Below are positions 9,068 through 41,836 of a stretch of DNA of 47,590 bases, in pieces. How positions within the stretch are numbered: position 1 is the stretch's first letter; every line of letters begins with the position of its first letter. This DNA is from a virus. Lineage: Duplodnaviria; Caudoviricetes. The stretch spans positions 1 through 47,590 of IMG/VR virus record IMGVR_UViG_3300016665_000364; one strand, written 5' to 3'. A model generated the notes under the pieces. That model was not told the origin of the DNA. It made no database searches and was given only the letters and a program-made list of their open reading frames with translations. A program made the translations under genes and the position numbers.

Positions 9068-9565
9068 TCAGGTCCAACTCCAATTGACAGTGAACGTGCC
9101 GGTGAGCCTCAACTCGCTCACTGCGTGAATCGTGAATCCGACGCCAGCAGTAGGCGCATCGCAGACGACGGCGATGCTCGCCACCGCATGCTCGAGCACG
9201 TTGTGGTCAGCCGTCGCGACTGCTGCGATCCATGCGTCGCACTTCGACGTGCCCGTGATGGACGTCTGTCCGGTGACAGTGGCCGTTGCGTAATTGCCGC
9301 CGGGCGTCGCGCCGAAGTTGAGCGTCGTCTGCCCGACGTTCGCCGAGCCGGCCGGGCCCGTTGCGCCGGTGGCACCCGTGGCCCCCGTGGCACCTGTTGC
9401 GCCCGTCGCTCCCGTAGCCCCAGTGGCTCCAGTCGCACCCGTGGGCCCCGTCGCACCCGTGGGGCCAGTCGGTCCAGTCGGCCCCGAGCCCGTGCCACCG
9501 CCGAACGACGGCGGGTCTGGATTGCTCCCTACGGGCGCGGCGGGTCTATTGTCACTGCGGGCCAC
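9068..9565 (-). CDS. Collagen-like (Gly-X-Thr) fibre protein
   Basis: 16 consecutive G-X-Y triplets (14 GPT/GAT) followed by a small beta domain. Confidence 0.85.
9341..9484 (-). repeat. 9-bp-period collagen coding repeat
   Basis: 16 units of 9 bp with variable third codon positions. Confidence 0.9.
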
Positions 9566-10677: not shown

Positions 10678-11274
10678 TCAGTACCCCAGCGCGGCCTTCG
10701 CCGCGGCCTTGTATTTCACGTGTCCCGCCGTCGTCGGATGCACGCCGTCCACGAGGTCGCCGAGCGCGAGGATCGCGGACCCATCGACGAACGTGGCCCA
10801 CGATCGCCCCGTACACGCCGACGAGATCGCGGTGCGGTAGTTCGGCAGCGTCGAGCCGAGCGCGTTGGCCGTCTCGGTGCTCCTGACGAGCGGCGACTGC
10901 GCGTAGACCGTGACCGTCGTGTCAAGCGCACGGATCTGGTCGAGCAGGTCAGCGTACGCGGACCCGAAGTCGGTCGAGTTCCACTGCGCGACGCCGTAGT
11001 CGTTGGTGCCGATCGCGAGCCAGATGCGCCGGCTGTTCGTGCCCCGTGCCGCCTGCACGAGTTGCTGCGCGAGGTTGACCCGCCACGCGGCCGTGAGGCC
11101 ATCGGTGCGGAGCTGCCGGCCGCTGTACGCGATGACACGCACCATGCCCGGATAGTCCGCGCTCAGGAGCACCGGCCAGGCGTCGGTTGCCGGGCTCGTC
11201 GAGGCGTAGCCCGCGGCGATGGAGTCGCCGTAGACCACGATTCGAGCCGATGGCCTCAAGTCGATATAGGCCAT
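10678..11274 (-). CDS. SGNH/GDSL hydrolase (esterase/deacetylase)
   Basis: YGDSI (S), AYSG (G), IGTND (N) and DGVHP (D/H) blocks. Confidence 0.92.
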   Translation of the reverse strand: MAYIDLRPSARIVVYGDSIAAGYASTSPATDAWPVLLSADYPGMVRVIAYSGRQLRTDGLTAAWRVNLAQQLVQAARGTNSRRIWLAIGTNDYGVAQWNSTDFGSAYADLLDQIRALDTTVTVYAQSPLVRSTETANALGSTLPNYRTAISSACTGRSWATFVDGSAILALGDLVDGVHPTTAGHVKYKAAAKAALGY

Positions 11275-19644: not shown

Positions 19645-22589
19645 CAGATGCTCCTCGTTGCGCTCATCTTGTTCGCGCCGTTTTTGACGCCGCCGACGAT
19701 GCCTATGCCGGTGATGGCAAACCCCTGGTTGAACCCGCTGGCCTGCGTGTCCTCGACGCAGATGCGCATCGCAGAGCACTTCTGCCGCGCCGGGCTGACG
19801 CGGAACCATTCGAGCGGCCACGCGCCGCCCCATGTCGCCCCGCTGCCCCAGGTCGCGTCATCGCCCCACGCGTCGGGGCCGGTGACGGTCGTGGCGTCCA
19901 CGGTCTGGTCGAAGAGGTACTCGGGCCGGAAGTCATAGCCGAGCCGCACGCGCAGCGAGTGCGCGCCCTCGTAGTCGCCGAGGATGAGCAGGCGGTAGAT
20001 GCGCTGGAACCCGTTCAACTGCGCGAGGGAGATCCACGCCGTGACGAACCGGAGCTGGATGAACGCGCCGTCGTCCGTGTACGTGCCATCGGCCTCTTGG
20101 TACGTGCGCCCGGTCGACCTGGCCCACACGTACTGGCCTTGCCACACCGCCGCGTCCACCGCCGCGATGCTGGTGAACGTGGACCACTGGTTCATCAGGT
20201 AGTCGTAGACGAGCACGAGCGCCGTCTGCGTCTCTCCGTTCGGCCTCGTCACGGTGCCCGACGTGGTGAACCGGACCTGGTTGTTCGACGGCACGAGCAC
20301 CGCCGACGTGACGGTGAGGCCGTTGAACAACTCGACCGGCGCGCCGACGTACGTGACGCTCAGCGAGCGGTCGAGCAGGTAGATCCCCTTCGGGCTGTGG
20401 AACATGAGCCCCGCGTTGGTCAGCACGACGGAGCGCGGCTCGTCGCATCCGACGTCGGACGTCACCAGTACGGGCTCGGCGTAGTCGCCCGCGCCCGTGT
20501 TGGTCGGACCGTCGCCGCCGACGACGAAGATCGCTCGCTCCTTGAAGATGACGATCTTGTCATCCATCCCGGCAATCGCCGTGACGTCGCCGCCCCGGTT
20601 GTCGGGCAGGAGGTACAGCCCGTCGTTGAACGCGGGCGGCTCTCCGTCGTATGCGATCTTCGAGTACGAGACGCGGTTCGGGCCGGTCCTCACGAACGCG
20701 CGCCCTCGGTGCGTCGTGATGAGCGAGCACGCGCCCGGCGCGATGTTCTCCAGCTCCTGATTCGCGGTGCCGTCCGTGTAGATGACGTCGTTCGTCTCGA
20801 TCGATGCGTCCGACGCCGTGTCCACGTAGGCCACGGACGTGGCCGTCGTGTCGTTCAGCGTGGGCGAGGTGAGCGACGAGATGCGGTAGAACACCGTCCC
20901 GCTCGCAACGGTCCGGTAGACGACGATGCGTACGTCCGTCTTGGCCGTCACGCGCAGCGTCGGGAGCGTCAGCGTCACCGAGTCGCTCGCCGCCGTCGTG
21001 ACCGCGTACGCCGCGCTCGGCGCGCTGCGGTGAATCTGCCCCTGCGCGTCGGTCCACTCGTACACGCAGCGGTACTGGTGCGCGCCGGCATCGATGGACC
21101 CGCCCGAGCCCGCCGCGGTGCCGGTGAGGCCCTCGGGGAAGAAGTGGAACCCGGCCTCACAGATGGTGCGCCCGTCGTACGCGTGCAGCACGCCGCCAGC
21201 GATGAGCAGATTGCCGCCCACCTCGGCCGACGCGTACCGATACGACGACGTAAAGTCGACCGTGACGATCTCGACGCCCGTGCGGCCGAAGAAGGTGCCG
21301 GCGTCCGACTCGACGCGCGTGATCGTCTCGTGCGCGAACTGGAAGACGCCGGTGGACACCTCGGTGGTCGGGGCCGTGTTGACGCGGTGTCCTCCGCTCA
21401 GCCCAGGGGCGGTCTTGGCGATGACGTCCCCGTCTTCGCTGACGACCATGCACGTGGACTGGAGCGTGCTGTCCCACGTCGTCGGGCAGTAGGCCGATCC
21501 GTTGTACCGGAACGCGGTCGCGCACGCGCGGAGACCGAGGGCCACGCGCTGCGGCGTGTCTGCGCTCAGCGTCGAGCCGCTGACGTGGTAGCGGGTCGAG
21601 TAGAACGAGCCGGCGTCGTCGTAGAAGATGACGCCTCCGTCCGAGTCCATGGCGACGCCCGTGATGCGGTCGGCGAGCGCTGGGGTGCCGATGCTCGTCG
21701 GCCCCGCCAGCACGGCCCCCGAGGAGCTGAGGACGGCCAGCTCCATGGACGACGTGATGCCGCTGACCAGGTAGACGTCGGTCCCGTTGGTGCCGAGCCA
21801 CGCGGCCAGCCCGGCCTGGCACGGGACGCTGACGGTCGTGCGGCTGCTGACGGCCCAGGACGAGTCGATGAGCCACCGCCCGAGCACGCTCGACGAGTCG
21901 TTCGAGATGACGAACAGGTTCGACGAGCCGGCGATGACGGTCAGGCGGATGTTCGATGGGTCGAGCGTGGAGATCGGATTGACCTCGACGCCGAGGGTCG
22001 AAGGGCTCGACGGTGACACGCGCCGATAGAACAGGTTGTTCGCGACCACGTAGACGATGGCGAACTCGCCCTGCCAGACGACGACGCCCGCGCCTGCGGC
22101 CGTGCTGCTCACCTCCGAGTCAGGCACGAAGAGGGAGCCAGTCGCGTCGTCGCGGACCGAGTAGCGCACGCCGCCGCGCGAGTCGGACCACACCGTGAGC
22201 GTGACGCCGCTGATCGTAACCGACGCCGGGATGGTCTGCTGGTAGGTGTTGCGGATGACCGGATCGGACGTCAGGTCGACCGACACGATCGAGCCACGGT
22301 CCACCCACCCGTCTAGCGCCTCCGAGCGCGAGTAGACGCGCCCCGCGTCGCCGAAGAGGAGCAGCTCGTCACGGAACACGGCCAGGCCGTCCGCGCGCGT
22401 CACCGAGTCGCCGCCGACGATGTTCGACGTGATGCCCGTGAAGCCGTTGCGCTTGCGGATGGAGCCGAGCTTGGTGAACACGCCGTTCTCAAGCTCGAGC
22501 AACTTGCCGGGGACGACGAGCTTCGCGTCGGTCTTGGTGTCGATGCCCTGCCCGAACTGGAGCGGGAAGAGTTGCTTACTCAGCGGCAT
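19644..22589 (-). CDS. Tail nozzle / tail tubular protein B-like (P22 gp10/T7 gp12 class)
   Basis: About 980-aa beta-propeller-like protein; G.D.KTD..L..LEN..F...G.I.KR.G N-terminus, VGC..PRSV, VYDY..NQWS; lies between the adaptor/fibre and the ejection genes. Confidence 0.8.
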   Translation of the reverse strand: MPLSKQLFPLQFGQGIDTKTDAKLVVPGKLLELENGVFTKLGSIRKRNGFTGITSNIVGGDSVTRADGLAVFRDELLLFGDAGRVYSRSEALDGWVDRGSIVSVDLTSDPVIRNTYQQTIPASVTISGVTLTVWSDSRGGVRYSVRDDATGSLFVPDSEVSSTAAGAGVVVWQGEFAIVYVVANNLFYRRVSPSSPSTLGVEVNPISTLDPSNIRLTVIAGSSNLFVISNDSSSVLGRWLIDSSWAVSSRTTVSVPCQAGLAAWLGTNGTDVYLVSGITSSMELAVLSSSGAVLAGPTSIGTPALADRITGVAMDSDGGVIFYDDAGSFYSTRYHVSGSTLSADTPQRVALGLRACATAFRYNGSAYCPTTWDSTLQSTCMVVSEDGDVIAKTAPGLSGGHRVNTAPTTEVSTGVFQFAHETITRVESDAGTFFGRTGVEIVTVDFTSSYRYASAEVGGNLLIAGGVLHAYDGRTICEAGFHFFPEGLTGTAAGSGGSIDAGAHQYRCVYEWTDAQGQIHRSAPSAAYAVTTAASDSVTLTLPTLRVTAKTDVRIVVYRTVASGTVFYRISSLTSPTLNDTTATSVAYVDTASDASIETNDVIYTDGTANQELENIAPGACSLITTHRGRAFVRTGPNRVSYSKIAYDGEPPAFNDGLYLLPDNRGGDVTAIAGMDDKIVIFKERAIFVVGGDGPTNTGAGDYAEPVLVTSDVGCDEPRSVVLTNAGLMFHSPKGIYLLDRSLSVTYVGAPVELFNGLTVTSAVLVPSNNQVRFTTSGTVTRPNGETQTALVLVYDYLMNQWSTFTSIAAVDAAVWQGQYVWARSTGRTYQEADGTYTDDGAFIQLRFVTAWISLAQLNGFQRIYRLLILGDYEGAHSLRVRLGYDFRPEYLFDQTVDATTVTGPDAWGDDATWGSGATWGGAWPLEWFRVSPARQKCSAMRICVEDTQASGFNQGFAITGIGIVGGVKNGANKMSATRSI

Positions 22590-23631
22590 GGGCCACCTCC
22601 GCAAGTCGGGCCAGCGCGCGCTCGCACTGGAGCCGCATCGTCGCGGACACGTCGCCGGCCTGGAGCGCGGACCGGATCGTCTGCGCCGCCTCCGGCTCGC
22701 CGGCCTGCCACTGGGCGAGGCCGTACGCCGCGACGCAATCGGAGTTGGGCGACCACCGTAGGAATGCGGCCTCTAGGACGCGCAGCACCGCGCGAGGCCC
22801 GCCGCGCCGCGAGGCGAACTCGCACAGCGACTGGACGATGCGGTGCCGCTCGGGCGTGGCGTCGTTGCACAGGCCGAACGCGTGCCGTGCGAGCACCTCG
22901 GCCTCCGCGTGCCGCTTCGCGTCGTCGAGCATGATGACGGCGTACGACAGCGCGTGGACGTCGTTCGGGTCGTCAGCGAGGCAGCGCTGGATGATGCGCC
23001 AGTTGCGCTCGTCGCGGCGGTGCTCGGCCCGGACGTCGAGCCGGCCGCCGAGGTGGATGACGCGCGCGGCTTCGCTCGGCACCGTGACGTGCCCCTGTCG
23101 GCGCAGACGGTCCACGACGCGCTCGTGGATGCGGTGTTGGTAGAACGGACCAACCTGCCGACGAAACAGCCGCGTCATGACCTGCGCGAGCTCGGGGCGG
23201 TCCACGTGGTCGAGCGCCATCGCGCCCCACGTCACGCAGTCGGGGAGCGTCTCAAGGAGCGCGCGGATGTTCTCGCCGCCCTCGAATCGCTCGTCCGCGT
23301 CGAGGAGCACGATCCACTCGCCGGTGCACAGCTCCATGGAACGGTTCCGGCACGCCGCGAAGTCGTCGATCGAGCGGAGCCCGTCGCCGAGGTCCACGGT
23401 GCGCCACGGCTCGCGCGTGACGAACGCGCCAAGCTCTGCGGCGATGGCGTCGGTCCCATCGGTCGAGCCGGTGTCGAGCACCACCACCTCGTCGGCCCAC
23501 GCGGCCGAGCGGATGGCGTCGGCGATGAAGTGGGCCTCGTTGCCGGCCATCATCGCCACCGAGATGCGCACGGGGCGCGGCTCGTCGTGGCAGACGGTGC
23601 CGGCCGGGACGTTCTGGAGCTTGATGAGCAT
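22576..23631 (-). CDS. GT2 (GT-A) glycosyltransferase with TPR-like C-terminus
   Basis: NEA..I..AI.S, VVLDTGSTDGT, DDFAACRN, LLDADE (DXD), RIHE, then helical repeats; coupled to the tail-fibre stop. Confidence 0.9.
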   Translation of the reverse strand: MLIKLQNVPAGTVCHDEPRPVRISVAMMAGNEAHFIADAIRSAAWADEVVVLDTGSTDGTDAIAAELGAFVTREPWRTVDLGDGLRSIDDFAACRNRSMELCTGEWIVLLDADERFEGGENIRALLETLPDCVTWGAMALDHVDRPELAQVMTRLFRRQVGPFYQHRIHERVVDRLRRQGHVTVPSEAARVIHLGGRLDVRAEHRRDERNWRIIQRCLADDPNDVHALSYAVIMLDDAKRHAEAEVLARHAFGLCNDATPERHRIVQSLCEFASRRGGPRAVLRVLEAAFLRWSPNSDCVAAYGLAQWQAGEPEAAQTIRSALQAGDVSATMRLQCERALARLAEVAHAAE

Positions 23632-24809
23632 CAGGCCGCCGCTACCTGTATGTCGTTGCCAGAGGTGCCGCGGTATCGGAGCGCGCCGTTCCAGCAGTAG
23701 AGGATGCCGCCCCCGACGGGGTTGCTGCTGGGGGAGGTGGACGCGTTGGAGATCCACACGACGTAATCGCCGGTGGGGATGTTCGTCGAAGTGACCTGCC
23801 CGCCAAGCGATATGTACCGTCTGGTTGACGAAAACTGCCCCGTCGTGACCATGACTGTGCCGCCGATAGCCAACTGCACGCGCCCCGCTAGCCCGGACCC
23901 GCTGCCCGTGCCTGACTGTAGCGTCAGCGTGCCGCCGTCGTTGGCAGCGCCCCCGGCCGACTGGGCCTGGATGCTCATGTTGCTGCCGGTGCCGGATGCG
24001 ACCGTCTGCGTGATGCTCGGGCTCGCGACCGATGCGCCGAAGGCCACCACGCCCGCGGTGCCGGTCAGCCCGACGACCGTAGGCGCAGCGGCCGTGCCGC
24101 CGAGGTCACCGGCAAGCTTGATGCTCCCCTTCGCGGTGGTCGACGCGTCGTGCTCGGTGATGACCGTCCACTTGTTCGCGCCGTCCGAGATGAAGCGCGC
24201 GGAGCCGTAGTTGCGATCGATGACCCACGACGTCCCGCCCTCGATGGTGTCGGAGCCGGCGCGGCTGATCGTGATGTTGTTCGACGCAGCGCCGCCGGTC
24301 GTATCGGTGAAGATGTAGTAGCGCCCCGTCTGCACCGCGTTTGCCGCGGGCAGCGTGATGGACCGGGGAGCGGCCGTGTTCACGAGGTAGAGCGTCGACG
24401 AATCGGACGGTCCAATCGTCACGTTCCCGGCGAGGGAGAGCGGCGAGTAGACCGCCGTCACGAGCCCCGACGTGTTCAGCGTGCCAGAGGACGTGATCTG
24501 TACGGGCGTCCCGCTGCCGTTGGTGTAGTAGAGGTTCCCGTCTGCCTTCGCCCACAGGCGGTAGGTGTCGGTGATCGCAGCAGCCTGCGCGGTGAACGCG
24601 GTGGCCTTGAGCCCGGTCGCGGTGTACCCGCCGAACGACAGGTTCGCGTCAATGTTGATGCCCGCGCTCGGGACCTGCACGCCCTTCCCCGTCGTATGGT
24701 CGTGCGCGTCGATGGACGTGATGGCGGTGTTGATCTGCGTGGCGAACGTCGGCCCCGCAGTTACGCTCACCGTCGGGAGCGTGAGGTTCATGTTGCTGGT
24801 GTTCGGCAT
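23631..24809 (-). CDS. Tail fibre/spike protein, Ser/Thr/Gly-rich
   Basis: NMNLTLPTV...IDAHDHTTGKGVQV anchor, ITLPAA..G...I.D..G.A..NNITI and KGSIKLAGDLGG fibre motifs. Confidence 0.8.
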   Translation of the reverse strand: MPNTSNMNLTLPTVSVTAGPTFATQINTAITSIDAHDHTTGKGVQVPSAGINIDANLSFGGYTATGLKATAFTAQAAAITDTYRLWAKADGNLYYTNGSGTPVQITSSGTLNTSGLVTAVYSPLSLAGNVTIGPSDSSTLYLVNTAAPRSITLPAANAVQTGRYYIFTDTTGGAASNNITISRAGSDTIEGGTSWVIDRNYGSARFISDGANKWTVITEHDASTTAKGSIKLAGDLGGTAAAPTVVGLTGTAGVVAFGASVASPSITQTVASGTGSNMSIQAQSAGGAANDGGTLTLQSGTGSGSGLAGRVQLAIGGTVMVTTGQFSSTRRYISLGGQVTSTNIPTGDYVVWISNASTSPSSNPVGGGILYCWNGALRYRGTSGNDIQVAAA

Positions 24810-30733: not shown

Positions 30734-32131
30734 TCAGTAGTCGTCGTCGTCAGAGCCACGCCCGAAGCGCCGCTCCATCTGCTCGTCCATGAACGCCTCG
30801 GAGTCCTGCTTCGGCTTCGGGGCCGGCGCGGGCTCGGCGAGGTAGTGCCTCGACGCCCGCCACAGGTAGAGCGCGGAGTCGGCGAGGTGGTTCGGGAACC
30901 CCTCGTGCTCCTTCGCCTGCCACTCGTCGTCCCACGGCAGCGCGCGCCACTCGTCGATGAGCCCGGCGCACTGGTCGCGGACCACCTTGATGCGCTGCAT
31001 CTGAAGGTCCGCGTTCATCAGCCGGATGTGGTCGCGCTTGCCCTGCTTCTCGGCGGCGACGAGCGGCAGGCGGTACACCGACCGCATGTGCTCCACGCCC
31101 TGCTTGTTCGCGCCGTCGATGACGAGCCGCGCGTTCGGGTAGGCCACGCGCAGCCGGCGAATCTCCTGCGCCACCTCGTCGAAGTTCATCGAAGGGCGCT
31201 TGACCGACGACAGCAGGTAGAGCGTCGGGTCGTGGCGACGCCAGCCGCCCACCGTGAACGCCGTATCGTCCGTGTAGCCGAGGTCGATCCCGATGCAGAA
31301 ATCCTCACACGCGGGCGCTGCCTCGACGGCGTTCGCAGGCGCGTATCGGTAGACGAGCCGGTCGGACGTCTCGGGCCACTCGCCGAGGTAGTGCGTCCGG
31401 TACTGCGTCGTCTCCTTGAACTGCGGCCGGTCGCGCTCGATGTCCTCGAGCTCCTCCCGGTGCTGTTCGGCCTGGTGCGGGTTGTCGAGCGCCGACCAGC
31501 GGTGCACCGACCAGCCGCGCTCCCGGCCCGACGTGATGCCGTAGAACAGTTGCGGCTTGTCGAGCGTGCCGAGGATCTCCCCCGGCGTGCCGACCATCGC
31601 GATGGTGCCGCGGTAGTCCGACGTCGCGGGGCGCAGCGTCTGGTAGACGAGCTCGCGGAGGTCGATCGTGTACTCCGACGACTCGTCCACGACCACGCGC
31701 CAGAACTTCTGGCCAAGGATCTTCCGCTTCTCGTCCTCGGTGGAGTCGACGCCGACGAAGTAGCAGACGCTCCCGTTCTCGTGGCGGATCGAGAGGTCCG
31801 AGTAGTTGGGCTTGAGCGGGACTCCGGCTTCGTCGCGGATGCGGAAGAAGACGTCCTTCCAGTAGATGCGCTTGATCGACTCGCGCGTGAGGCCGATGAC
31901 GAGGCTCGACGAGCCCGGCATCTCCTCCATGCCCTCAGTGATCATGATGCCCGCCGCGGTCGACTTGCCCGCGCGACGGGTGCAGAGCGCGGCCTTGAGC
32001 CGGCTACGGTCATCGATGAACGCGCGCTGCTTTGGGAAGCACATCGCGCGGATGCGGTTCAGCCGCGCCTGCTGCTCGGCAAAGATGCGCGCGGCCACCG
32101 GGAAGGCAGCACGCGCGCGGGTGAGGTCCAT
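30734..32131 (-). CDS. terL: Terminase large subunit
   Basis: Q..F, TRRAGKST (Walker A), VVVDES (Walker B), GTP coupling motif, IGIDLG and HLADSALY nuclease motifs. Confidence 0.95.
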   Translation of the reverse strand: MDLTRARAAFPVAARIFAEQQARLNRIRAMCFPKQRAFIDDRSRLKAALCTRRAGKSTAAGIMITEGMEEMPGSSSLVIGLTRESIKRIYWKDVFFRIRDEAGVPLKPNYSDLSIRHENGSVCYFVGVDSTEDEKRKILGQKFWRVVVDESSEYTIDLRELVYQTLRPATSDYRGTIAMVGTPGEILGTLDKPQLFYGITSGRERGWSVHRWSALDNPHQAEQHREELEDIERDRPQFKETTQYRTHYLGEWPETSDRLVYRYAPANAVEAAPACEDFCIGIDLGYTDDTAFTVGGWRRHDPTLYLLSSVKRPSMNFDEVAQEIRRLRVAYPNARLVIDGANKQGVEHMRSVYRLPLVAAEKQGKRDHIRLMNADLQMQRIKVVRDQCAGLIDEWRALPWDDEWQAKEHEGFPNHLADSALYLWRASRHYLAEPAPAPKPKQDSEAFMDEQMERRFGRGSDDDDY

Positions 32132-32169: not shown

Positions 32170-32471
32170 CAGATCGTCTCCTTCCACGAGGTTCGGGCCT
32201 GCGACTCCACGGACGCCATCACGGCGTCCACGACATCGACCACGGCCGCGCCGCCCTTCTCCACCATCGGGCCGCCGAGGGCCGCCTGGAGCAGCCGCTG
32301 ACGGACGCCGCTCCGGCACTGGAGCTCGTGGCCGCGCACGCCTTCGTTCGCGCGCGCGTCGGTCTCGTCGGGGCGCTGCTCGTACGCTGCGCCGCACCAG
32401 CGGCACAGGATCTTCGTCCGCATCGGGAGGATGATGCCGCCCGGCGTAGCTTCGAGGTCTGCCACGGTCAC
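32169..32471 (-). CDS. Hypothetical C2HC zinc-finger-like protein
   Basis: CRWC...HELQC; GTGA overlap start. Confidence 0.6.
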   Translation of the reverse strand: MTVADLEATPGGIILPMRTKILCRWCGAAYEQRPDETDARANEGVRGHELQCRSGVRQRLLQAALGGPMVEKGGAAVVDVVDAVMASVESQARTSWKETI

Positions 32472-32728
32472 TTCCCCTTCGCGGTGGACGGTTCGGGCGT
32501 CTTCTGGATGGCGTAGTTGACGCCCTTCACGTTGCCCCACGGGACGAACGCGGTGCCGGTGTGGCCGTTCGGGTGGACGTGCGTGATGCGCAGGCCAGCG
32601 GCCTCCTCGACAAACGTCCACGCCTTGCGTCGCTCGGCAGACATGTCGCTCACGGGCGGCAGGCTCGGGTGGTTCTCGTTGCCGACGTAGACGGCTTCCT
32701 TGAAGTACACGCGTTCGATGTTGCTCAC
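32468..32728 (-). CDS. Hypothetical protein (86 aa)
   Basis: AAGGAG RBS, GTGA overlap; FVPWGNV motif. Confidence 0.65.
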   Translation of the reverse strand: MSNIERVYFKEAVYVGNENHPSLPPVSDMSAERRKAWTFVEEAAGLRITHVHPNGHTGTAFVPWGNVKGVNYAIQKTPEPSTAKGK

Positions 32729-33138
32729 TTGCTCATCTCCTTCGCCATCGCCAATCGCGTGGCGACTTGTTCGATCTGCGCCATCAGGGCGCGCTCATCG
32801 AGCATGTACTGGGCTCGCATGTTGCCGAGCCGGATGCCGAGCCCGTCGAGTTCCGCCTGGAGCGTGACCACCAGCGGCGGCGTCGGGGCCTCGGCGTGCT
32901 GCGCCACCAGGTCGAGGCTGCTGCGCGCGGTGCCTGCGAGCACGCGACGGCGGTGCGCCTCCTCCATCTCATCCTCGATGCGCGTGTCGGCGAGCGGATT
33001 GCCGTCCTTGTCGACCGGGGTCGAGGTGAACTTGACGTCGGCGAGCGCGCCCATGGCGCTCTGCACGGCGTCGAGCGCGGTGTTGTGGATGGCCCCCGCG
33101 CGTGCGGTGGCTTCGTCGGCGGATACGAATGCGGGCAT
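32725..33138 (-). CDS. Hypothetical coiled-coil protein
   Basis: TGATG overlap with the GNAT stop; heptad C-terminus. Confidence 0.6.
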   Translation of the reverse strand: MPAFVSADEATARAGAIHNTALDAVQSAMGALADVKFTSTPVDKDGNPLADTRIEDEMEEAHRRRVLAGTARSSLDLVAQHAEAPTPPLVVTLQAELDGLGIRLGNMRAQYMLDERALMAQIEQVATRLAMAKEMSK

Positions 33139-33626
33139 CAGCGTCGTCCTGCGTGAGGGTTGAAGGTCAGTTGGTATTTGGTCATCCATCCGAGGAAGTT
33201 GCGGCCGACGTAGGTGCAGACCATGCCGCTTCGCCACTCGGGGAGGATGGCGTTCATCAGGTCCCGCGCGATGCCGTTGCGTCGCATCGTGTGCTTCACG
33301 TGGACCCAGTGCGCGATGCGGTGCTCGGGCTCCGCGATGGCGAAACCGTAGATCGTCTCCGCATCGTCGGCGTCGCAGGCCACGACCGCGCGCGTCGTCG
33401 GCCGCTCGAGGATTTCCGCCACCGCAGCGCGCGTGAACCGGTGCGGAACGTCGGCGAACCAGCCGACCTGCGTGCCCGACAGCGTGCGGTGGTCGCACCA
33501 TTGCGAGAGGTCGGAGGACTTGAGCTCGCCCCACGCGTCGCCCGCGGACTTGAGCCACGACGAGAGGATGAACCCCACGTCCCCTGGCTCGGCGGGTCGT
33601 AGGCGGTAGATCGGGTCGGTCATCAT
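33138..33626 (-). CDS. GNAT-family acetyltransferase
   Basis: RLRPAEPGD N-terminus, IYGFAIA strand, HWVHVKHTMRRNGIARDLM acetyl-CoA motif A. Confidence 0.8.
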   Translation of the reverse strand: MMTDPIYRLRPAEPGDVGFILSSWLKSAGDAWGELKSSDLSQWCDHRTLSGTQVGWFADVPHRFTRAAVAEILERPTTRAVVACDADDAETIYGFAIAEPEHRIAHWVHVKHTMRRNGIARDLMNAILPEWRSGMVCTYVGRNFLGWMTKYQLTFNPHAGRR

Positions 33627-34690
33627 GCTCCCAGCGCTGCGAGTCGCTCGCGCGCCATGTCGTTCGCCACGTACCGCACGGTCCATTGCTGCGGACCCAC
33701 GGACACCGCGGCGCGGTACATCTCTGCCGCGTGGTCGCGCATGCCCAGCGCCTCGGCCACCATGCCGCGCATCGTCAGCACGTCGGGGTGCTCGACCCCT
33801 TCGCGCGCGTCCCACTCCGTCAGCGTCGCCCACGCCTTCTCAGCGTCGCGAGCTCGCAGCGCGCACCACGTGCGGGCTACGACGAGCCGGAGGAACTGCG
33901 CGCCGATGAGCTTCTCGTGCCCGAGCATCGCCCACGCGCGCTCGGCTGCGTCTTCGGCCCGCGACGGGTCCGCGCCGCTGGCGTGTTCGAGCGCGAGGTA
34001 CGTCAGCGGGACGGGGTTGGTCGGGTCCAGCGACGCCGCGCGCTCCAGCAGCAGCACGTTGCGCAGGTCCTTGCCCAGCTTGCGCCGGATGCCGGGCTCG
34101 TGCCCGTACTCCGCGACGCGCGAGCGGGTCACGTTGCCCCGTGTCGTTCCGTGCAAATCGTGCCTACGCTCCTCCCACGCCGCGACCGTCTCGTGGATCA
34201 CGCCGTCGTACCAGGGCCCGTCCACGCGCCGGATGAGCGCAATGTTGCCGTTCGGCTTGGCGAACCTCGCACGGCCGGCCACCACGTCCACAGGACGCGC
34301 CGTGAGCTTGGCCGAGATGTGGAACCACAGCGTCCACGTGTCGTGCTGCTCCTGCGCCGCGGCCTCGCGCACCGCGTCGAGCGTCGGCCAGACGTAGGCA
34401 TGGTCGGCATCCACGATGAGCGCATGCGTCCCGCTTGCGAGACCGATGGCGCGGTTCCGAGCGTCGGCGAAGTCGGAGAGCACGCGCATGCCGCCCAGCT
34501 CGATGGTCCGCTCGGGCTCCGAGACGAGGACGTCCGCGCCGTGTCGACGTGCGACATCCATCGTCGCGTCCGTCGAGCCCGTGTCGAGCACGACGATCTC
34601 GTCCACCCCGCGTCGAATCGAGTCAAGGCAACGCGGGAGGTTCGCGGCCTCATTGCGCACGATGAGGCAGGCGCTTAGGGTTGGCTTCAT
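33623..34690 (-). CDS. GT2 (GT-A) glycosyltransferase with TPR-like C-terminus
   Basis: LSACLIVRNEAANLPRCLDSI, LDTGSTD, DFADARN, VDADH, GVIHE, then helical repeats. Confidence 0.92.
   Translation of the reverse strand: MKPTLSACLIVRNEAANLPRCLDSIRRGVDEIVVLDTGSTDATMDVARRHGADVLVSEPERTIELGGMRVLSDFADARNRAIGLASGTHALIVDADHAYVWPTLDAVREAAAQEQHDTWTLWFHISAKLTARPVDVVAGRARFAKPNGNIALIRRVDGPWYDGVIHETVAAWEERRHDLHGTTRGNVTRSRVAEYGHEPGIRRKLGKDLRNVLLLERAASLDPTNPVPLTYLALEHASGADPSRAEDAAERAWAMLGHEKLIGAQFLRLVVARTWCALRARDAEKAWATLTEWDAREGVEHPDVLTMRGMVAEALGMRDHAAEMYRAAVSVGPQQWTVRYVANDMARERLAALGA
34653..34681 (+). promoter_or_regulatory. Putative sigma70 promoter for a leaderless lipoprotein mRNA
   Basis: TTGCGC (34653-34658), 17-bp spacer, TAGGGT (34676-34681); ATG follows 7 nt later with no SD. 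Confidence 0.5.
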
Positions 34691-35084
34691 GAGGGACTCA
34701 GTGTTCGCAGTCGGGGTGCTGTCGCTTGCGCTGCTGGCGTGTGGCTACCGGCCGTCCGGTGCGTTCCAGCCGCGGTCGCACTCGACGCCCACCGACCAGA
34801 TCTGCAAGGTCGCGATCGAGATGGGTCCGGATGACGTGGTGCTGGTGGAGGAGGCCGGCGGTCGGAAGACGGGCGTGCTGGAGGTCGACGCCGAGTCCAA
34901 CCCGGTCGAGTACGAGGTCTCCGCGTACGGCGGCACGCACTTCATCAGCCGGCGCTCGACGAACTCGTACACCGCGCACGGCGTCATCAGCCGCAAGCAC
35001 AACGACTCGGTGATCGAGGTCTACCGCGTGCCGGTCAGGCAGTGGGACCAGTTGCCGAAGGGGCTGCGACCGGAGAAGCCGTGA
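34689..35084 (+). CDS. Predicted lipoprotein, antisense to the late operon
   Basis: MRDSVFAVGVLSLALLAC signal peptide with lipobox; good coding bias; fills the gap between the LpxA-like and GT genes. Confidence 0.75.
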   Translation: MRDSVFAVGVLSLALLACGYRPSGAFQPRSHSTPTDQICKVAIEMGPDDVVLVEEAGGRKTGVLEVDAESNPVEYEVSAYGGTHFISRRSTNSYTAHGVISRKHNDSVIEVYRVPVRQWDQLPKGLRPEKP

Positions 35085-35118
35085 GCCTCGGGCCACGCGT
35101 AGTATCCGAGCCAGTACG

Positions 35119-35688
35119 TCATCGCCGCCCCTTGTCCTTCGCGAACCGTTCCCACAACGCAGGGCGCACCGAGCGGAAGCCCGACTCGACGGCCAGAATC
35201 TCGTCGTCGGTGAAGCCCGCGCGCTTCATGCCGACGCGGTTGTAGCCGACCTTGCGCGCCGGCACGCCCACCCACGTCTCGAACGGCGGCACGTCCTCGA
35301 GCACGACCGCGCCCGCGCCGACCATCGCGTACGCGCCGATCGTGACGTGCTGGTGCGTCGTGGCGTTCAGCCCGAGATTCGCGCCCTCGTGCACGATGGT
35401 GTGACCTCCGAGCGTCGCGCCCGTGGCCAGCGTGACGTCGGGCCCGAGCTCGCAGTCGTGACCGACGTGCGTGTGCGCCATCAGGTAGCAGCGCGGCCCG
35501 ATGACGGTGCAGCGCCCGAAGCCGCCATGAACCGTGGCGAACTCGCGAATCACCGTGCCGTCGCCGACCTCGACGCCCTTGTTCGGTGGGTTGACGCCTT
35601 TGCGCTTGTCCTCGCCCGGTGCGCCGACGACGGCCAGCGGGGATACGTGCGTCTCGCCGAGGAGGAAGAGGAGGCGGTCAGACAACAT
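35119..35688 (-). CDS. lpxA: LpxA-like left-handed beta-helix UDP-sugar acyltransferase (short, 189 aa)
   Basis: IREFATVHGG, LMAHTHVGHDC, LGGH, HQ, DVPPF and NRVGMKRAGF match LpxA signature segments including the catalytic His. The symbol denotes family, not proven function. Confidence 0.8.
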   Translation of the reverse strand: MLSDRLLFLLGETHVSPLAVVGAPGEDKRKGVNPPNKGVEVGDGTVIREFATVHGGFGRCTVIGPRCYLMAHTHVGHDCELGPDVTLATGATLGGHTIVHEGANLGLNATTHQHVTIGAYAMVGAGAVVLEDVPPFETWVGVPARKVGYNRVGMKRAGFTDDEILAVESGFRSVRPALWERFAKDKGRR

Positions 35689-36547
35689 CGACCCACCCAC
35701 CACCGCTCGCGCGGGACTTCTTCGCGGCCTCGATGACCGCGGCGACGTGGATGAACTCGTCGGCGCTGCCGATGGTCGGCGGCTGGCCGGTGCGGATGGC
35801 GTCCAGGAACGTGTCGAGGATGACGGCGAGGGGCTCGGGGGCGCCGGGCAGGTTCTCGCCGTCGTTGCGGTACACAGCCACGTCGTTGCCGATCTCGGTC
35901 GTGACCGTGACCCTGCGCACCTTCTCGCTGCGCGAGTACGAGTACGACGTGGACGCGCCGCATCCGCGGTCACGGTCGCCGATGTCGAGCGCAACGATGA
36001 CGCAGTCTTCTTCGTCTTCGGCTCCGTTGACGACGCTCACACGACGGACTTGCTGGTCGAACGCCAGACGCGCCAACGCCACGTCATGCGGCAGCAGATC
36101 CTCCAACGGGTCGAAGCCGCGCTCATCCTGCGCGTGGCGAGCCGCGTGGAACTGCCGGATGCCGTCCGACGCAAGAAGCTGCAACACGCCCGCGTGCGCC
36201 TCCCACGTAAAGTCGCACATCAGCACCAACCCCCGCCGCTTCGCCTCGTCGGCGAGCATCTCGGCCTGCGCCTTGGTACGGGCCAAGGGCTTCTCGCAGA
36301 GGACGTGCTTGTGCGCGACGATGAGCTCACGCACGAGGAGTTCATGCGTCTCGATCGGCGAGGCCACCCAGCAGCCGTCGCAGCCCGTGAAGTCGTACGG
36401 TGGACGAACGGGCACGCCGTGCTCGGAGGCGAGGGCCACCGCAGCGTCCGTGTCCGGGTCGCTGACCCACGCCAGCACGCCAGCCTTCGCCATCGCACGC
36501 GCGGCGTTGCGGCCCCAGCGGCCGGCTCCGATTAGGCCGATCTTCAT
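35678..36547 (-). CDS. Gfo/Idh/MocA NAD-dependent oxidoreductase (GnnA/WlbA/WbpB-like)
   Basis: IGLIGAGRWG Rossmann motif, HVLCEKP and DLLPHD catalytic motif. Confidence 0.9.
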   Translation of the reverse strand: MKIGLIGAGRWGRNAARAMAKAGVLAWVSDPDTDAAVALASEHGVPVRPPYDFTGCDGCWVASPIETHELLVRELIVAHKHVLCEKPLARTKAQAEMLADEAKRRGLVLMCDFTWEAHAGVLQLLASDGIRQFHAARHAQDERGFDPLEDLLPHDVALARLAFDQQVRRVSVVNGAEDEEDCVIVALDIGDRDRGCGASTSYSYSRSEKVRRVTVTTEIGNDVAVYRNDGENLPGAPEPLAVILDTFLDAIRTGQPPTIGSADEFIHVAAVIEAAKKSRASGGGWVDVV

Positions 36548-36675
36548 TTGCTCACTCCTCGCAAGAACGCAGCGATGAGCCACGCACCCTCCCACATGGC
36601 GAGCATCCCGCCGGGCACCCTCCACTCGGTCGGGCCTGTTGCTGCGAGCACCAACCCAAAGGCGAGAGCAATCAT
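36544..36675 (-). CDS. 43-aa hydrophobic peptide (not in ORF track)
   Basis: MIALAFGLVLAATGPTEWRVPGGMLAMWEGAWLIAAFLRGVSK; ATGA overlaps with both flanking genes. Confidence 0.55.
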   Translation of the reverse strand: MIALAFGLVLAATGPTEWRVPGGMLAMWEGAWLIAAFLRGVSK

Positions 36676-37706
36676 CCCCTCACCGCCTTCTTCACGTGCT
36701 CAATCACGTACGCCACCTGCTCGTCGCTCATGTGCGCGTGGCACGGCAGCGACAGCACGCTCCGCGACCACTCCGTCTCGCGCCCGTCCGCCGTGGTGCG
36801 GTAGTGCACCATCGCGCCGATGCCGACAGAGCGGAGGTAGGCCAGCACGCGATCGCGCCCGTTGGTGCGAACGACGTACTGATGCCACGCGTGGTCCGGT
36901 TCCCACTTCGGCAGCTTCAGTTCAATGCCGTAGGGTTCGTCGTATTCGCGCGCCTTGTGGAACGCCAAGAGTTCGTCTGTGTACGCCCGCGCGATCTGCC
37001 GCTTGCGCTCCACCCACGCATCCAGACGCTTCAGCTTGGCGCGAAGCACGTCGGCGTTCACACCGTCCATGCGCAGGTTCCACCCTCGCGACCAGTGCCG
37101 GTCCGTCGCGCGGTCGTAGCCGTGCTCGCGGATGCGACGCGCCTTCGCGGCGGCCACGCTGTCCTTGAACGTCACGACGCCGCCCTGACCCATGCCGCCG
37201 AGGTTCTTCGACGGGTACAGCGACCACGCCGCGGCGACGCCGATGGTGCCAGCGCGCTTGTTGCCGTGGGCCTGCGACGCGTCCTCTAGGAGCTGCACGC
37301 CGGCCTCGGCACAGCTCCGGGCCACGCGGTCTGCGTCGGCCGTCGAGCCGTAGAGCCAGACGGCCACGTGGGCATCCTGCTCGTTGAACTCGATGCGCCT
37401 GCCGCTTCGCTCCACGGCGGCGCGAGTCGCAACGAACGTCTCGCTCGGCACAGAGACGCGAGCGTTGTCGTCAGTGCACGCCCGCACCATCAGCTCCACG
37501 GCATCTGTCCCCGACGAGCACGCCACCGCATGCACGCCGCCGCCGACGTACGCCGCGAACTCGTGCTCGAACGCCTCGACGCTCTCCGCGCCGAGATAGT
37601 TGCCGCTGCGAAGTCGCGCGAGGACGACGGGTTCCACCTCGTCTGCAATCTCGCGCCACTGAGCCGCTAGGTCAGTCGCTGGTACCTGTAGGACCGCTGC
37701 CATCAT
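36672..37706 (-). CDS. DegT/DnrJ/EryC1/StrS PLP aminotransferase (GnnB/WlbC/WbpE-like)
   Basis: FEHEFA, SSGTDA, EDASQAHG, SLYPSKNLG (PLP Lys), G.N.RMD and LSLP motifs. Confidence 0.93.
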   Translation of the reverse strand: MMAAVLQVPATDLAAQWREIADEVEPVVLARLRSGNYLGAESVEAFEHEFAAYVGGGVHAVACSSGTDAVELMVRACTDDNARVSVPSETFVATRAAVERSGRRIEFNEQDAHVAVWLYGSTADADRVARSCAEAGVQLLEDASQAHGNKRAGTIGVAAAWSLYPSKNLGGMGQGGVVTFKDSVAAAKARRIREHGYDRATDRHWSRGWNLRMDGVNADVLRAKLKRLDAWVERKRQIARAYTDELLAFHKAREYDEPYGIELKLPKWEPDHAWHQYVVRTNGRDRVLAYLRSVGIGAMVHYRTTADGRETEWSRSVLSLPCHAHMSDEQVAYVIEHVKKAVRG

Positions 37707-38106
37707 CGCTCCGAGGGCCGTTGCCCTGCTGTTGACTCTGCTCCCACCGCATGAAGGCCAGGACGCGCTCGGTATCGACGGGATCCGCCGCAGCCTGCGC
37801 AGCCTGATCGAGCCCGCCGAACTTCTCGACCCACGCGAGCAGCGCGCGCAACGCCACGCCGTCGTCGGGTGAGTTGATCAATTCGGCCCACCGCTCCGAC
37901 ACGCGAACCGCCTGGGTCCGCATGTCGCGGTGGAACGCCTTCGTCATCTCGCGCTGCGCTGCGTCCACTTCGGCCGCAAACTCAGCGTCCTGCATCCAGC
38001 GGCAGACGGTGGCTCGATCGCACCCCAGCTCACGACCCGTCTCTGCCTGCGTCTTGCCGGATGCGAGTAGCTCTACCGCCCGGCGCTTTCGTGCGTCGAG
38101 CGCCAT
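37672..38106 (-). CDS. terS: Terminase small subunit candidate (N-terminal HTH)
   Basis: RAVELLASGKTQAETGRELGCDRATVCRW..DAEF HTH followed by helices; first gene of the late block. Confidence 0.65.
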   Translation of the reverse strand: MALDARKRRAVELLASGKTQAETGRELGCDRATVCRWMQDAEFAAEVDAAQREMTKAFHRDMRTQAVRVSERWAELINSPDDGVALRALLAWVEKFGGLDQAAQAAADPVDTERVLAFMRWEQSQQQGNGPRSDDGSGPTGTSD

Positions 38107-39716: not shown

Positions 39717-41836
39717 TCGCGCTGGCGGACCTGCCGGTATCCGAGCCGGCGCATGATGGTCGCGACGCGCATCTCTGTGCCTTTGACCCGCTGCGAGGTG
39801 GGCAGGTTGAGCGCTTTGTCGAGGATGGCGTTGGTAGTGATGGGGGTGGACGGCTGGCGGTTGGCTAGCCACTCGGTGACCGGCTCCTCCCACGAGTCCT
39901 CGACCTGGTACTGCGCGGCATCGACCTCGCGCTGGCCCTCCTCCTCGTCGGAGAGCCACCACGTCTCGCCCCCCCTGTAGCGCGTGACGGCCTCTGCCCA
40001 GAGCTGGTCGCGCCACTCGGCGGCGAGCTCGTAGGCCACGCGGTCTCCGACGCGCAGGATGTTGAATCGACGCGAGCCGGTGGGGTCGGTGAGGAACTGG
40101 TCCTCGTTGGTCGTCCCGACGATGACGGTTGAGCGCGGGTGCACGGCGGTCGTGCGGCCGAACGGCGCGCGGAAGGTATCGTGTGTGGACGAGGCGAACG
40201 CCTTGACCTCGGATGCCCGGCGGGACGTGGTGACATTCTCGATCTCCGCCCACTCGTAGATCCACGCGCTGTGGAGTTGCAGCAGGCCGTCCTTGTCGGT
40301 GATGTCCATGTGCGTGTCGGCGAACCACTCGCCGCCTAGCGTGGCGAAGAACGACGACTTGCGCGCACGCTGGCGACCGACCAGCACGAGCGCCGTGTCA
40401 ACCTTGCAGCCGGGCCGCAGGGCTCGCGCGGCGGCGGCGACGAACCACTTGGTCACCATGGACTGATTCAGCGCGTTGTTGTCCGCGCGGAGCACGTCGG
40501 GGACGACGCGGTTGATGCGCTCCTCACCGTCCCACGTCAGGCCCGAGAGGTACTGCTGGACCGGGTGGTACCGCCGCGCGTCGGAGACGGTGCCAATGGC
40601 GGCGCGCACGTCGGCCTCGCCGGGCTGAATGCCGAAGTGTTGCTCGAGCTCGCGGCGGATGCGGCCGACGTCTGCGTCGGTGACGGGCCGACCGGCGAGC
40701 ATGGGCGTCAGGCGCATCTCGTCGTAGGTGAGGCGCGTGCCGTAGGAGTCGTGGTGTTCGAGGATGCGGCAGATGTTGTCGAACGTCTTGCGCACCTGGC
40801 CGTTGCTCGCCGTCGCAAGCATGGCGCGCCAGTTGTCCGAAGAGGCGATGCGCGGAGCGTTGTTTGCGACCGGCTCGGGCGCGTCGTCGAGCATGTCAGG
40901 CGGCACGCTCGGCACGTAGTCCGGGTCGGGGTCGGGCGGCGGCGTGGGGACCGGCTTGACTCGGTTGGCGAGGTAGCCGAACTCGGTCGTGGCATCCTGC
41001 TCGGCGTCCTCGACCTTGTGGCGGAGCTCGCGGTCGCTCCACGGCGGCTGGCAGCGCGGGTTGAACTCGGTGCGCAGCATCTGAAGCGCGCGGGCCGGTG
41101 GGATGGAGAACCCGCGGACGAGCGACAGCGCGGCGGACCACAGCGCTTGGTGCCCACCGCTGCCGGAGATCGACGGCGGCAGCTTGGCGAGGTACTTGAG
41201 CGCGCGCTTCTCGACGTCGCCGCGCGGCGCGGTGGCCTCCTGTGCGGCGCGTGTGCGTTCGTTCTCCTCGTACTTGTGGGCGGCCAGGATGCCGTCGGGG
41301 TCGAGCGGCGCGGAGCCGGCGAGTCTGACGAGTTGGTAGTGGTCGGTCTTGCCAGGGCTGTACCAGAACCGCGCGACGTCCTTGGTGGCCGGGTCGATGC
41401 GTTGCCCAGCGCCGCTGGCGAGCTTCTGCGCCCAGCGCCAGACGATGGGGTACTCGTCGGGCGAGACGTTGCGCGTGAGCGGCAGGACGACGCGGAAGCG
41501 GGGCGCGTCGGGCTTGTGCTTGCGGCTTGTGTGGATCGCGCCGTAGTGGTCGGCCCAGAGGTCGAGCGCGGCCTCGATGGTCGTGCCGCTGTCGTAGTCG
41601 AGCACCAGCGCCGACATGGCGACGACGTTGGACGCGGCGCGGATGGGCGGGTCACAGATGGCCGCGGACCAGCCGGGCTGCTTCATGTCGCCGCGGTAGC
41701 GGGGCGGGTCGACCCAGGAGGCGAACACGTCCTCCCAGGTCGTGACGATGGCGGTGCCTTCGGTGTCGTGGAGCGACGGCCACGACATGATGGCGGCGGA
41801 TGGCGTGGTGGTGTTGGCGTCGCAGTTGGTCATCAT
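39680..41836 (-). CDS. Primase-helicase: AEP/PrimPol domain, PriCT domain and VapE-type helicase
   Basis: LVLDYD, HTSRKH, RFRVVLPL; ISGSGGH...RCQPPWS..EL..K; PGCKVD..LVLVG.Q...KSS, WIYEWAE, GTTN..FL.DPTGSRRF. Confidence 0.92.
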   Translation of the reverse strand: MMTNCDANTTTPSAAIMSWPSLHDTEGTAIVTTWEDVFASWVDPPRYRGDMKQPGWSAAICDPPIRAASNVVAMSALVLDYDSGTTIEAALDLWADHYGAIHTSRKHKPDAPRFRVVLPLTRNVSPDEYPIVWRWAQKLASGAGQRIDPATKDVARFWYSPGKTDHYQLVRLAGSAPLDPDGILAAHKYEENERTRAAQEATAPRGDVEKRALKYLAKLPPSISGSGGHQALWSAALSLVRGFSIPPARALQMLRTEFNPRCQPPWSDRELRHKVEDAEQDATTEFGYLANRVKPVPTPPPDPDPDYVPSVPPDMLDDAPEPVANNAPRIASSDNWRAMLATASNGQVRKTFDNICRILEHHDSYGTRLTYDEMRLTPMLAGRPVTDADVGRIRRELEQHFGIQPGEADVRAAIGTVSDARRYHPVQQYLSGLTWDGEERINRVVPDVLRADNNALNQSMVTKWFVAAAARALRPGCKVDTALVLVGRQRARKSSFFATLGGEWFADTHMDITDKDGLLQLHSAWIYEWAEIENVTTSRRASEVKAFASSTHDTFRAPFGRTTAVHPRSTVIVGTTNEDQFLTDPTGSRRFNILRVGDRVAYELAAEWRDQLWAEAVTRYRGGETWWLSDEEEGQREVDAAQYQVEDSWEEPVTEWLANRQPSTPITTNAILDKALNLPTSQRVKGTEMRVATIMRRLGYRQVRQREVGSILRVWVRS

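Follow-up and report, generated by a model that had tools for sequence, protein, structure and literature searches.

A predicted amino-sugar pathway and two GT2-TPR glycosyltransferases among the late genes of an uncultured temperate phage: a candidate system for virion O-glycosylation

Introduction

Why would a phage of 47 kb carry genes for making and transferring an amino sugar between the genes for its two terminase subunits? The question is raised by IMG/VR record IMGVR_UViG_3300016665_000364 (Duplodnaviria; Caudoviricetes), one record of an uncultured virus of 47,590 bp and 68% GC, which is referred to here, at its full length, as the window. At positions 33138..37706, between the small (terS) and large (terL) terminase subunit genes, it encodes a DegT-family aminotransferase, a Gfo/Idh/MocA dehydrogenase (Gfo), an LpxA-like acyltransferase and a family 2 glycosyltransferase with tetratricopeptide repeats (GT2-TPR). 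The sequence occurs in freshwater, estuary and aquaculture metagenomes, one run of which may be its source, with no RNA run among those listed. The encoded set comprises an integrase, a repressor, a VapE primase-helicase, the terminases, a P22/SU10-like portal, capsid, adaptor, tail tube and internal virion proteins, and the genome reads as temperate and podophage-like.

Sugar-pathway genes of aquatic phages are usually interpreted as modifiers of the host surface or of DNA (PMC7029224, PMC10202952, PMC12801897). A previous sequence-only reading of this locus had proposed that the phage makes its own diamino sugar and attaches it to virion proteins. On balance, our analysis favours O-glycosylation of the virion with a 3-acetamido sugar, probably a 2,3-diacetamido one, that the phage makes itself. 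The predicted C3 pathway and the protein-type glycosyltransferases uphold the core of the earlier proposal, and support is now stronger because a collagen-like Gly-x-Thr acceptor candidate was found in the same genome.

Organization and integrity of the cassette

Five open reading frames (ORFs) had been read between terS (37672..38106, minus strand; phrog_7344, E = 1e-8) and terL (30734..32131, minus strand; phrog_2, E = 1e-32), namely those of the four enzymes named above and a GNAT acetyltransferase. The sequence and Pfam searches revealed that all five were present, intact and in the expected order on the minus strand, and that DegT directly follows terS, the two ORFs overlapping (terS 38106-37672, DegT 37706-36672). 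The run is not unbroken: Gfo and the acyltransferase overlap, but a 43-aa hydrophobic ORF (36544..36675, minus strand) lies between DegT and Gfo, and a plus-strand gene lies between the acyltransferase and the GT2 gene. The 43-aa ORF couples DegT to Gfo and is dispensable; it is missing from one relative's contig, in which 36541 is joined to 36676. Three further small ORFs are present between GNAT and terL. The cassette occupies the strand of the packaging and structural genes, opposite to that of the repressor and integrase, and is overlap-coupled to terS and, in the case of a second glycosyltransferase (GT B), to the tail fibre gene; this position supports a role in the particle.

The GC content and third-position GC content (GC3) of the cassette match the rest of the genome, with GC3 values of 0.86-0.91 compared with 0.90-0.95 in the core structural genes. 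Independent contigs from four runs in four studies bridge the terS/DegT and Gfo/acyltransferase junctions and the whole stretch 32370-35798 (X7 record 25, 32370-35798; X2 record 12, 35228-36517; X10 record 6, 37479-37725), so the locus is no assembly chimera, a possibility that the earlier reading had marked for checking. In relatives' contigs, the size differences were in frame (105 versus 117 nt in DegT, in 4/4 runs; 370 versus 337 nt in Gfo). Run X7 shows a depth above 100 for relatives. Among the variants listed, 10 of 14 changes in the cassette glycosyltransferase (GT A) were synonymous, as were four of nine in DegT, the latter a small and biased sample. The catalytic motifs had been called intact, and the key residues are indeed present in DegT, Gfo, the acyltransferase and GT2, those of the last two being invariant in homologues. 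Across clades, active-site residues were invariant down to 44-51% identity. The observed cassette is real, intact and conserved.

Enzymes of the predicted sugar pathway

The DegT-family protein (36672..37706, minus strand; alternative start 37703) is a trimmed sugar aminotransferase of 344 aa that depends on pyridoxal phosphate (PLP) and is predicted to be of the C3 type (PF01041, E = 1.7e-57), with the motifs EDASQAHG and SLYPSKNLG. Its best matches in the PDB were QdtB (2.7e-41), 2OGA, 5U1Z, 8E75 and WbpE (1.8e-26), all ahead of perosamine synthase and ArnB. We take QdtB, 2OGA, 5U1Z and 8E75 to act at C3. WbpE is a 3-aminotransferase (PMC10622841).

The NAD-dependent Gfo dehydrogenase (35678..36547, minus strand; GFO_IDH_MocA PF01408, E = 1.9e-15) has 289 aa, contains the motifs GAGRWG, CEKP and DLLPHD and is a predicted sugar 3-dehydrogenase. 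The best PDB match was 7BVJ (E = 8.8e-9), which we take to be GnnA. Its match to NF040723, the model of UDP-GlcNAc (uridine diphosphate N-acetylglucosamine) 3-dehydrogenase, had an E-value of 1e-9; its score was far short of the cut-off, and it ranked behind iolG (8e-14).

The third enzyme is a short LpxA-like left-handed β-helix acyltransferase of 189 aa (35119..35688, minus strand; Hexapep and Acetyltransf_11), a predicted 3-N-acetyltransferase in which H77, D78, H96, H112, N150 and R156 are invariant in 22/22 sequences. The top PDB match was 8E62 (E = 2.3e-28), likewise of 189 aa and, by its title, Psychrobacter Pcryo_0615, an N-acetyltransferase that serves in making a 2,3-diacetamido sugar; Leptospira LpxA was a near tie (2.9e-28). 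The best NCBIfam matches were LpxA models (E = 6e-43), with a score of 147 bits against the LpxA equivalog cut-off of 226. The phage enzyme is also shorter than LpxA (189 versus ~260 aa) and lacks the N-terminal coils and most of the LpxA helical domain. In a FastTree phylogeny of 112 sequences, the phage acyltransferase clade was monophyletic (0.98) and, under a midpoint root, fell together with the short paralogues found in sugar clusters and not with full-length LpxA; the nearest bacterial paralogues adjoin Gfo and DegT genes (L012, L023, L007). The structure model of the acyltransferase was poor, with a predicted local distance difference test score (pLDDT) of 68 and a best template modelling (TM) score of 0.37.

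Judged only by family and nearest structure, a 3-dehydrogenase, a 3-aminotransferase and an N-acetyltransferase are present together, and a predicted pathway of C3 oxidation, amination and N-acetylation is well supported by their homologies. In the Wbp pathway, three matching activities make UDP-GlcNAc3NAcA (PMC10622841), while GnnA and GnnB make UDP-GlcNAc3N (PMC5644692). A 2-acetamido skeleton of the product is likely but uncertain, as the evidence is split: the acyltransferase, through 8E62 and LpxA, points to it, while DegT scores higher with QdtB than with WbpE and the Gfo matches are weak. These DegT and Gfo results make a sugar of the 3-acetamido-glucose type possible. Among the 50 + 10 window ORFs scanned, we found no 6-dehydrogenase, flippase, polymerase or membrane glycosyltransferase, in agreement with the earlier statement that the first three, the dehydrogenase being of the WbpA type, were not seen.

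The two GT2-TPR glycosyltransferases

GT A (33623..34690, minus strand; Pfam GT2, E = 5e-11) is a GT2-TPR glycosyltransferase of 355 aa and of the GmaR/SunS/SgtA type. Profile searches of the PDB identified GmaR (3e-26), SunS (2e-24) and ThuS (7e-18). The model of GT A showed a pLDDT of 91.5 and a helical C-terminal half, and the top six Foldseek matches were ThuS and SunS, with TM scores of 0.61-0.70. In particular, a GT-A domain with a DxD motif is followed by a TPR-like helical domain, as in protein glycosyltransferases of the SunS/GmaR/SgtA type. GT A has 17 close homologues at 44-97% identity, all metagenomic; DxD (DAD at 94-96), HE and RN are invariant in 17/17 GT2 rows.

The second TPR glycosyltransferase claimed by the earlier reading was also found, 10 kb away. 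GT B (22576..23631, minus strand; PF00535; PDB matches GmaR, 2e-11, and ThuS, 9e-6) has 351 aa, and its gene is flanked by those for the tail fibre and the tail tube and is coupled to the former. GT B and the tail fibre had identical longest-contig sizes in three other strains, on which the independent support for their adjacency rests; sister phage L251 has no glycosyltransferase in the slot between fibre and tube. GT A and GT B share 32% identity over 231 aa and a common insertion before the DF motif, and both genes are within the packaging and tail block. By these comparisons, both enzymes are closest to the protein and peptide glycosyltransferases GmaR, SunS and ThuS. A further relative in type, SgtA, is a GT2+TPR enzyme of 358 aa that adds O-GlcNAc to Thr of Gly-Pro-Thr collagen repeats in vitro and, of three donors tested, accepted only UDP-GlcNAc (PMC7157674).

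Candidate acceptors

The main candidate acceptor is a collagen-like fibre protein (9068..9565, minus strand; PF01391 and, through the repeat, tail-fibre PHROGs) with a common 90-aa C-terminal domain. The repeat (~9484-9341) consists of 16 Gly-x-y triplets, 14 of which end in Thr. The start codon, GTG at 9565, is uncertain, and the identical sequence is not in the protein collection.

We compared the surroundings of viral GT2 genes with those of relatives that have none. Viral GT2 clusters other than that of the window were found with the GT A alignment and numbered 41 after de-duplication. Collagen lay within 10 kb in 19 of the 41, and 18 had a repeat with at least half Thr (Gly-x-Thr), in a count that took any qualifying repeat per locus and favours Thr-rich calls. 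None of the 80 terL-related loci without glycosyltransferases contained collagen, total lengths being similar (1.11 versus 1.01 Mb). Among 150 homologues of the C-terminal domain, 12 had seven triplets or more, and only one of these 12 was at least half Thr; the domain family has 1418 representatives and no Pfam entry. GT2 was found in neither of two phages that have the C-terminal domain with no or remnant collagen (94% and 47% complete). We also observed that the 90-aa domain (9068-9349) precedes 7615-9066, a homologue of a 483-aa protein also present in the unrelated phage L329, suggesting that the two genes form a mobile module for a fibre or spike.

The second candidate acceptor is a tail fibre or spike of 392 aa (23631..24809, minus strand; phrog_20556, tail), which adjoins GT B and has 25% Ser+Thr.

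Conservation of the cassette with the terminase family

Twenty homologues of the acyltransferase, all metagenomic, were found at 55-87% identity. Co-location was assessed by a proxy, the exact equality of reported longest-contig sizes between homologues, with a terL set of 119 of 502 matches. At least five of the 20 acyltransferase homologues matched terL contig sizes exactly (31057, 6458, 7932, 11505 and 32179), against a chance mean of 0.10 (jitter) and two of 99 ordinary LpxA matches in a control. Additionally, at least two of 18 GT A homologues matched terL contig sizes, and three acyltransferases matched GT A. The matched terL proteins were at 55-78% identity, which is indirect but strong evidence that the cassette accompanies this terminase family to a terL identity as low as 55%.

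In the wider terL family, tblastn and profile searches of 80 IMG/VR loci, many of them short and 28 with at least 7 kb upstream of terL, revealed no DegT, Gfo, acyltransferase or GT2 gene. Pfam searches of 143 of the 247 cluster representatives from these loci, the ones of ~140 aa or more, found no sugar genes. In a whole-record search of the 38 longest records, eight of which are at least 90% complete, collagen was found in none, and one weak GT2 match fell below the cut-off. On these comparisons, the cassette is a clade-specific insert. Sister phages L250/L251 match the helicase at 78% and the primase at 58% and have a terS-like gene directly before GNAT. Among cultured phages, no cassette-bearing relative was found, Gfo being without a match and matches of the other enzymes being distant. 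Scanning IMG/VR with the acyltransferase or terL as single proteins returned nothing, and a metagenome scan yielded only matches of 29-59%, mostly bacterial LpxA, the close acyltransferase clade not being among them.

Neighbouring genes and genome setting

The GNAT acetyltransferase (33138..33626, minus strand; Pfam E = 2e-4) had been counted in the sugar cassette, and this part of the earlier reading does not stand. GNAT was present in 32 of 77 terL-related loci (three distant loci dropped), all without sugar genes, and its look-alike clusters in the Atlas are virus-only clusters of viral GNATs. It is a conserved gene upstream of terL that belongs to the phage family and not to the cassette.

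The plus-strand gene within the cassette (34689..35084) is lipoprotein-like, with a signal-like N-terminus ending in LLAC, and is a probable moron. It has no Pfam, PHROG or NCBIfam match and is also present in the independent contig X7 record 25. Sister phage L251 carries a lipoprotein-like gene at 15027-15569 on the minus strand of its record; in both phages the gene runs against the late operon, and both are possible lysogeny morons.

Neither tRNA genes nor a terminal repeat was found in the window. In a host search of 301 genomes from the phylum of one metagenome-assembled genome (MAG), titled Myxococcota, profiles of terL matched four and those of the primase 61, at no more than 47-50% identity and with no control phylum included; terL was found in none of the three MAGs carrying the closest bacterial glycosyltransferases. 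Three other genes were observed in the window. A GDSL/SGNH esterase (10678-11274) amid the fibre genes is possibly a de-O-acetylase for host polysaccharide, a metallophosphoesterase with an N-terminal extension (5095-6186) lies downstream of lysis-like genes, and a single frame at 41833-43077 combines HNH endonuclease and VRR-NUC domains, where sister phage L250 has a short gene only.

The enzyme trio in other viruses

The DegT, Gfo and hexapeptide acyltransferase trio recurs in unrelated viruses. Low-GC viral sugar islands contain it (L343:4643-16928; also L342 and L349-L351), L343 additionally having FdtA, GMD, GT8, GT10 and GT47 genes and a GT2 gene that adjoins a virion structural gene. 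In two IMG/VR records of ~35 kb, L355 (9267-11991) and L356, the three genes lie in tandem in a replication block amid genes for an SNF2 helicase, Sak4, QueD and QueE, which suggests a different use; a candidate is hypermodification of DNA with an amino sugar, in connection with deazaguanine chemistry. Partial sets are found beside terL. The terL-portal interval of L002 (7844-15333) contains a GT-like ORF, a Gfo-hexapeptide fusion, a second GT-like ORF and methyltransferases; here, too, a packaging operon includes a sugar cassette, one independent of that in the window. In L337 (7078-9586), an unrelated phage, a DegT gene with 34% identity to that of the window directly follows terL.

Discussion

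What the analysis shows is the genes, their order and intact motifs, their conservation beside the terminase family, the solved proteins closest to them and their association with collagen. From these we infer what each enzyme does, which donor and acceptor are used, that expression is late and that the sugar ends up on the virion, in the following model. Late in infection, the phage would make a nucleotide-linked 3-acetamido sugar, probably UDP-2,3-diacetamido-2,3-dideoxy-glucose. Gfo would oxidise C3 of host UDP-GlcNAc, or of UDP-GlcNAcA if the host supplies it, DegT would aminate the resulting 3-keto sugar, and the short β-helix enzyme would N-acetylate the amino sugar with acetyl-CoA. A GT2-TPR enzyme, whose TPR domain may hold the protein, would then transfer the sugar in O-linkage to threonines of particle proteins, with the Gly-x-Thr collagen fibre as the predicted main target. 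The two glycosyltransferases may be split by acceptor (collagen fibre and tail fibre) or by donor (host GlcNAc and self-made sugar). As to the purpose, resistance to proteases or grazers, adhesion or shielding is speculation.

Several observations weigh against virion glycosylation with a self-made sugar. DegT lacks two segments of ~20 aa that are present in bacterial homologues, the region of the first being similarly short, with the frame kept, in relatives from four runs; this trimming, together with the better score with QdtB than with WbpE, makes the donor and activity uncertain, and the family matches of Gfo are weak. As SgtA took only UDP-GlcNAc of the three donors tried, the phage enzymes might ignore the self-made sugar. 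The collagen gene is on the same strand as the two glycosyltransferase genes but 13 and 24 kb from them, whereas sgtA adjoins bclA3, and the way in which collagen repeats were counted leans towards Thr. Ser/Thr richness was rejected as acceptor evidence because all values are inside the range of relatives without glycosyltransferases: the Ser+Thr share is 0.17 in the major capsid protein (relatives' median 0.152, range 0.124-0.173), 0.25 in the fibre (0.205-0.256) and 0.20 in the tube (0.159-0.215). By tblastn, none of the 80 viral GT2 loci contained a DegT, Gfo or LpxA-like gene, so the glycosyltransferase and collagen usually occur without the sugar pathway. Finally, the recurrence of the trio means that it is not unique to this phage and does not, alone, imply virion glycosylation.

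The best-surviving alternative, which we still consider unlikely, is glycosylation of a protein on the host surface, be it a pilin, a flagellin or some other receptor, so that superinfection is blocked or host recognition altered. GmaR, which we take to be a flagellin glycosyltransferase, is the top glycosyltransferase profile match, and the phage has an integrase, a repressor and a lipoprotein-like moron within the cassette; this is also the usual published interpretation of aquatic-phage sugar genes (PMC7029224, PMC10202952). It is opposed by the coupling of the genes to terS and to the tail fibre, by their place on the late strand, the repressor and integrase being on the other, and by the SgtA-type acceptor encoded in the same genome. 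Internal sigma-70 promoters numbered 0 against 1.2 expected, a weak test at 68% GC.

Somewhat less probable again is a split of functions, in which the glycosyltransferases coat the virion with host GlcNAc and the three-enzyme pathway separately feeds or perturbs host glycans (O-antigen or capsule). The exclusive use of UDP-GlcNAc by SgtA (PMC7157674) and the scarcity of the sugar pathway at viral GT2-collagen loci would fit such a split, and the trio, having no 6-dehydrogenase, could draw on the host pool. However, contig-size matching places the acyltransferase and GT A on shared contigs in three relatives, the pathway and both glycosyltransferase slots are jointly absent in sister phage L251, and a flippase, polymerase and membrane glycosyltransferase are missing.

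We regard as improbable the placing of the sugar on phage DNA around packaging as an anti-restriction hypermodification, which the location between terS and terL and the setting of the trio in L355/L356 would suit. Both glycosyltransferases have the peptide-binding TPR architecture of SunS, ThuS and GmaR, and temperate genomes rarely have bulky hypermodifications. The window ORFs scanned, several small ones of which have no family, revealed no gene for base hydroxylation, deazaguanine chemistry or any other DNA modification. Hardly different in probability, and marginally the lower, is that the trio works as a GnnA/GnnB/LpxA set, either diverting UDP-GlcNAc to 2,3-diamino lipid A or depleting the precursors of lipid A, an alternative that the earlier reading had named. 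It would explain the LpxA models as best NCBIfam matches (under the cut-off) and the near tie of Leptospira LpxA with Pcryo_0615, and GnnA/GnnB perform exactly the first two steps (PMC5644692), but the acyltransferase is short and groups apart from full-length LpxA under the midpoint root, and two protein-type glycosyltransferases and the collagen would be left unexplained. A chimera or decaying captured host DNA, to which the two DegT deletions and the short Gfo might point, is the least probable explanation and largely refuted by the bridging contigs, the in-frame size differences, the invariant active sites and the mostly synonymous GT A variants.

Returning to virion glycosylation, we advance more tentatively the broader proposal of a clade of small temperate podophage-like viruses with autonomous protein glycosylation, in which a minimised UDP-2,3-diacetamido-glucose pathway would serve two paralogous GT2-TPR enzymes acting on collagen spikes and tail fibres, with a sugar that the host may not make. 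Among tailed phages, such a system would correspond to the fibril glycosylation of Mimivirus, and it would provide, in compact form, a transferase for O-linked diacetamido sugars. If the virion-glycosylation reading is right, small phages would be free of the host in the choice of their coat sugar, like giant viruses, in which this self-sufficient strategy has so far been shown. Since one 47-kb genome encodes the donor pathway, transferases of the protein type and an acceptor that can be recognised, this reading is testable with six soluble proteins in vitro. Our searches of the open-access literature brought up neither a 2,3-diacetamido pathway in a phage nor a phage pairing of GT2-TPR with collagen. 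Each half has a precedent, in mycobacteriophage virion glycans (PMC11256854) and Mimivirus amino sugars (PMC4691112), while that literature gave no example of both together in a 47-kb phage.

Comparison with known systems

Upon comparison with known systems, we found similarities to five, with differences from each. As described for Clostridioides difficile SgtA/BclA3 (PMC7157674), the likeness being drawn from that description and not from direct sequence comparison, the phage has a soluble GT2+TPR enzyme of ~355 aa, a Gly-Pro-Thr/Gly-Ala-Thr collagen repeat in the same genome and a predicted O-linkage to Thr. In contrast to the spore system, it involves a phage particle, two glycosyltransferases, a collagen gene that is not adjacent and its own donor pathway.

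The WbpB/WbpE/WbpD (WlbA/C/B) and Pcryo_0615 pathways (PMC10622841) likewise bring together a Gfo dehydrogenase, a DegT aminotransferase and a β-helix N-acetyltransferase. The phage cassette is predicted to work like them, but it is no O-antigen locus: it has no WbpA 6-dehydrogenase, WbpI epimerase or Wzx/Wzy, its enzymes are trimmed, and it lies in a phage late operon with protein-type glycosyltransferases. GnnA/GnnB and LpxA of 2,3-diamino lipid A (PMC5644692) share the first two steps on UDP-GlcNAc and the LpxA-like active-site residues; the phage acyltransferase differs in being truncated and in grouping with sugar N-acetyltransferase-like paralogues, and no other lpx gene accompanies it.

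The earlier reading had tied the self-made coat sugar to giant viruses rather than small phages; virion glycosylation as such has already been reported in mycobacteriophages (Freeman et al. 2023, as cited in PMC11256854), tailed phages that have glycosyltransferases for their own particle. There, the capsid glycan was measured; here, a rare self-made sugar is predicted as the donor and a collagen fibre as the acceptor. The UDP-viosamine cluster and fibril glycosylation of Mimivirus (PMC4691112, PMC9614988) are similar in having a virus-encoded PLP aminotransferase, an acetylation step and clustered glycosyltransferases for a rare amino sugar on the particle. Mimivirus, however, is a giant virus of eukaryotes with a C4-amino 6-deoxy sugar, whereas the present system belongs to a 47-kb tailed phage and is predicted to use a C3-amino sugar.

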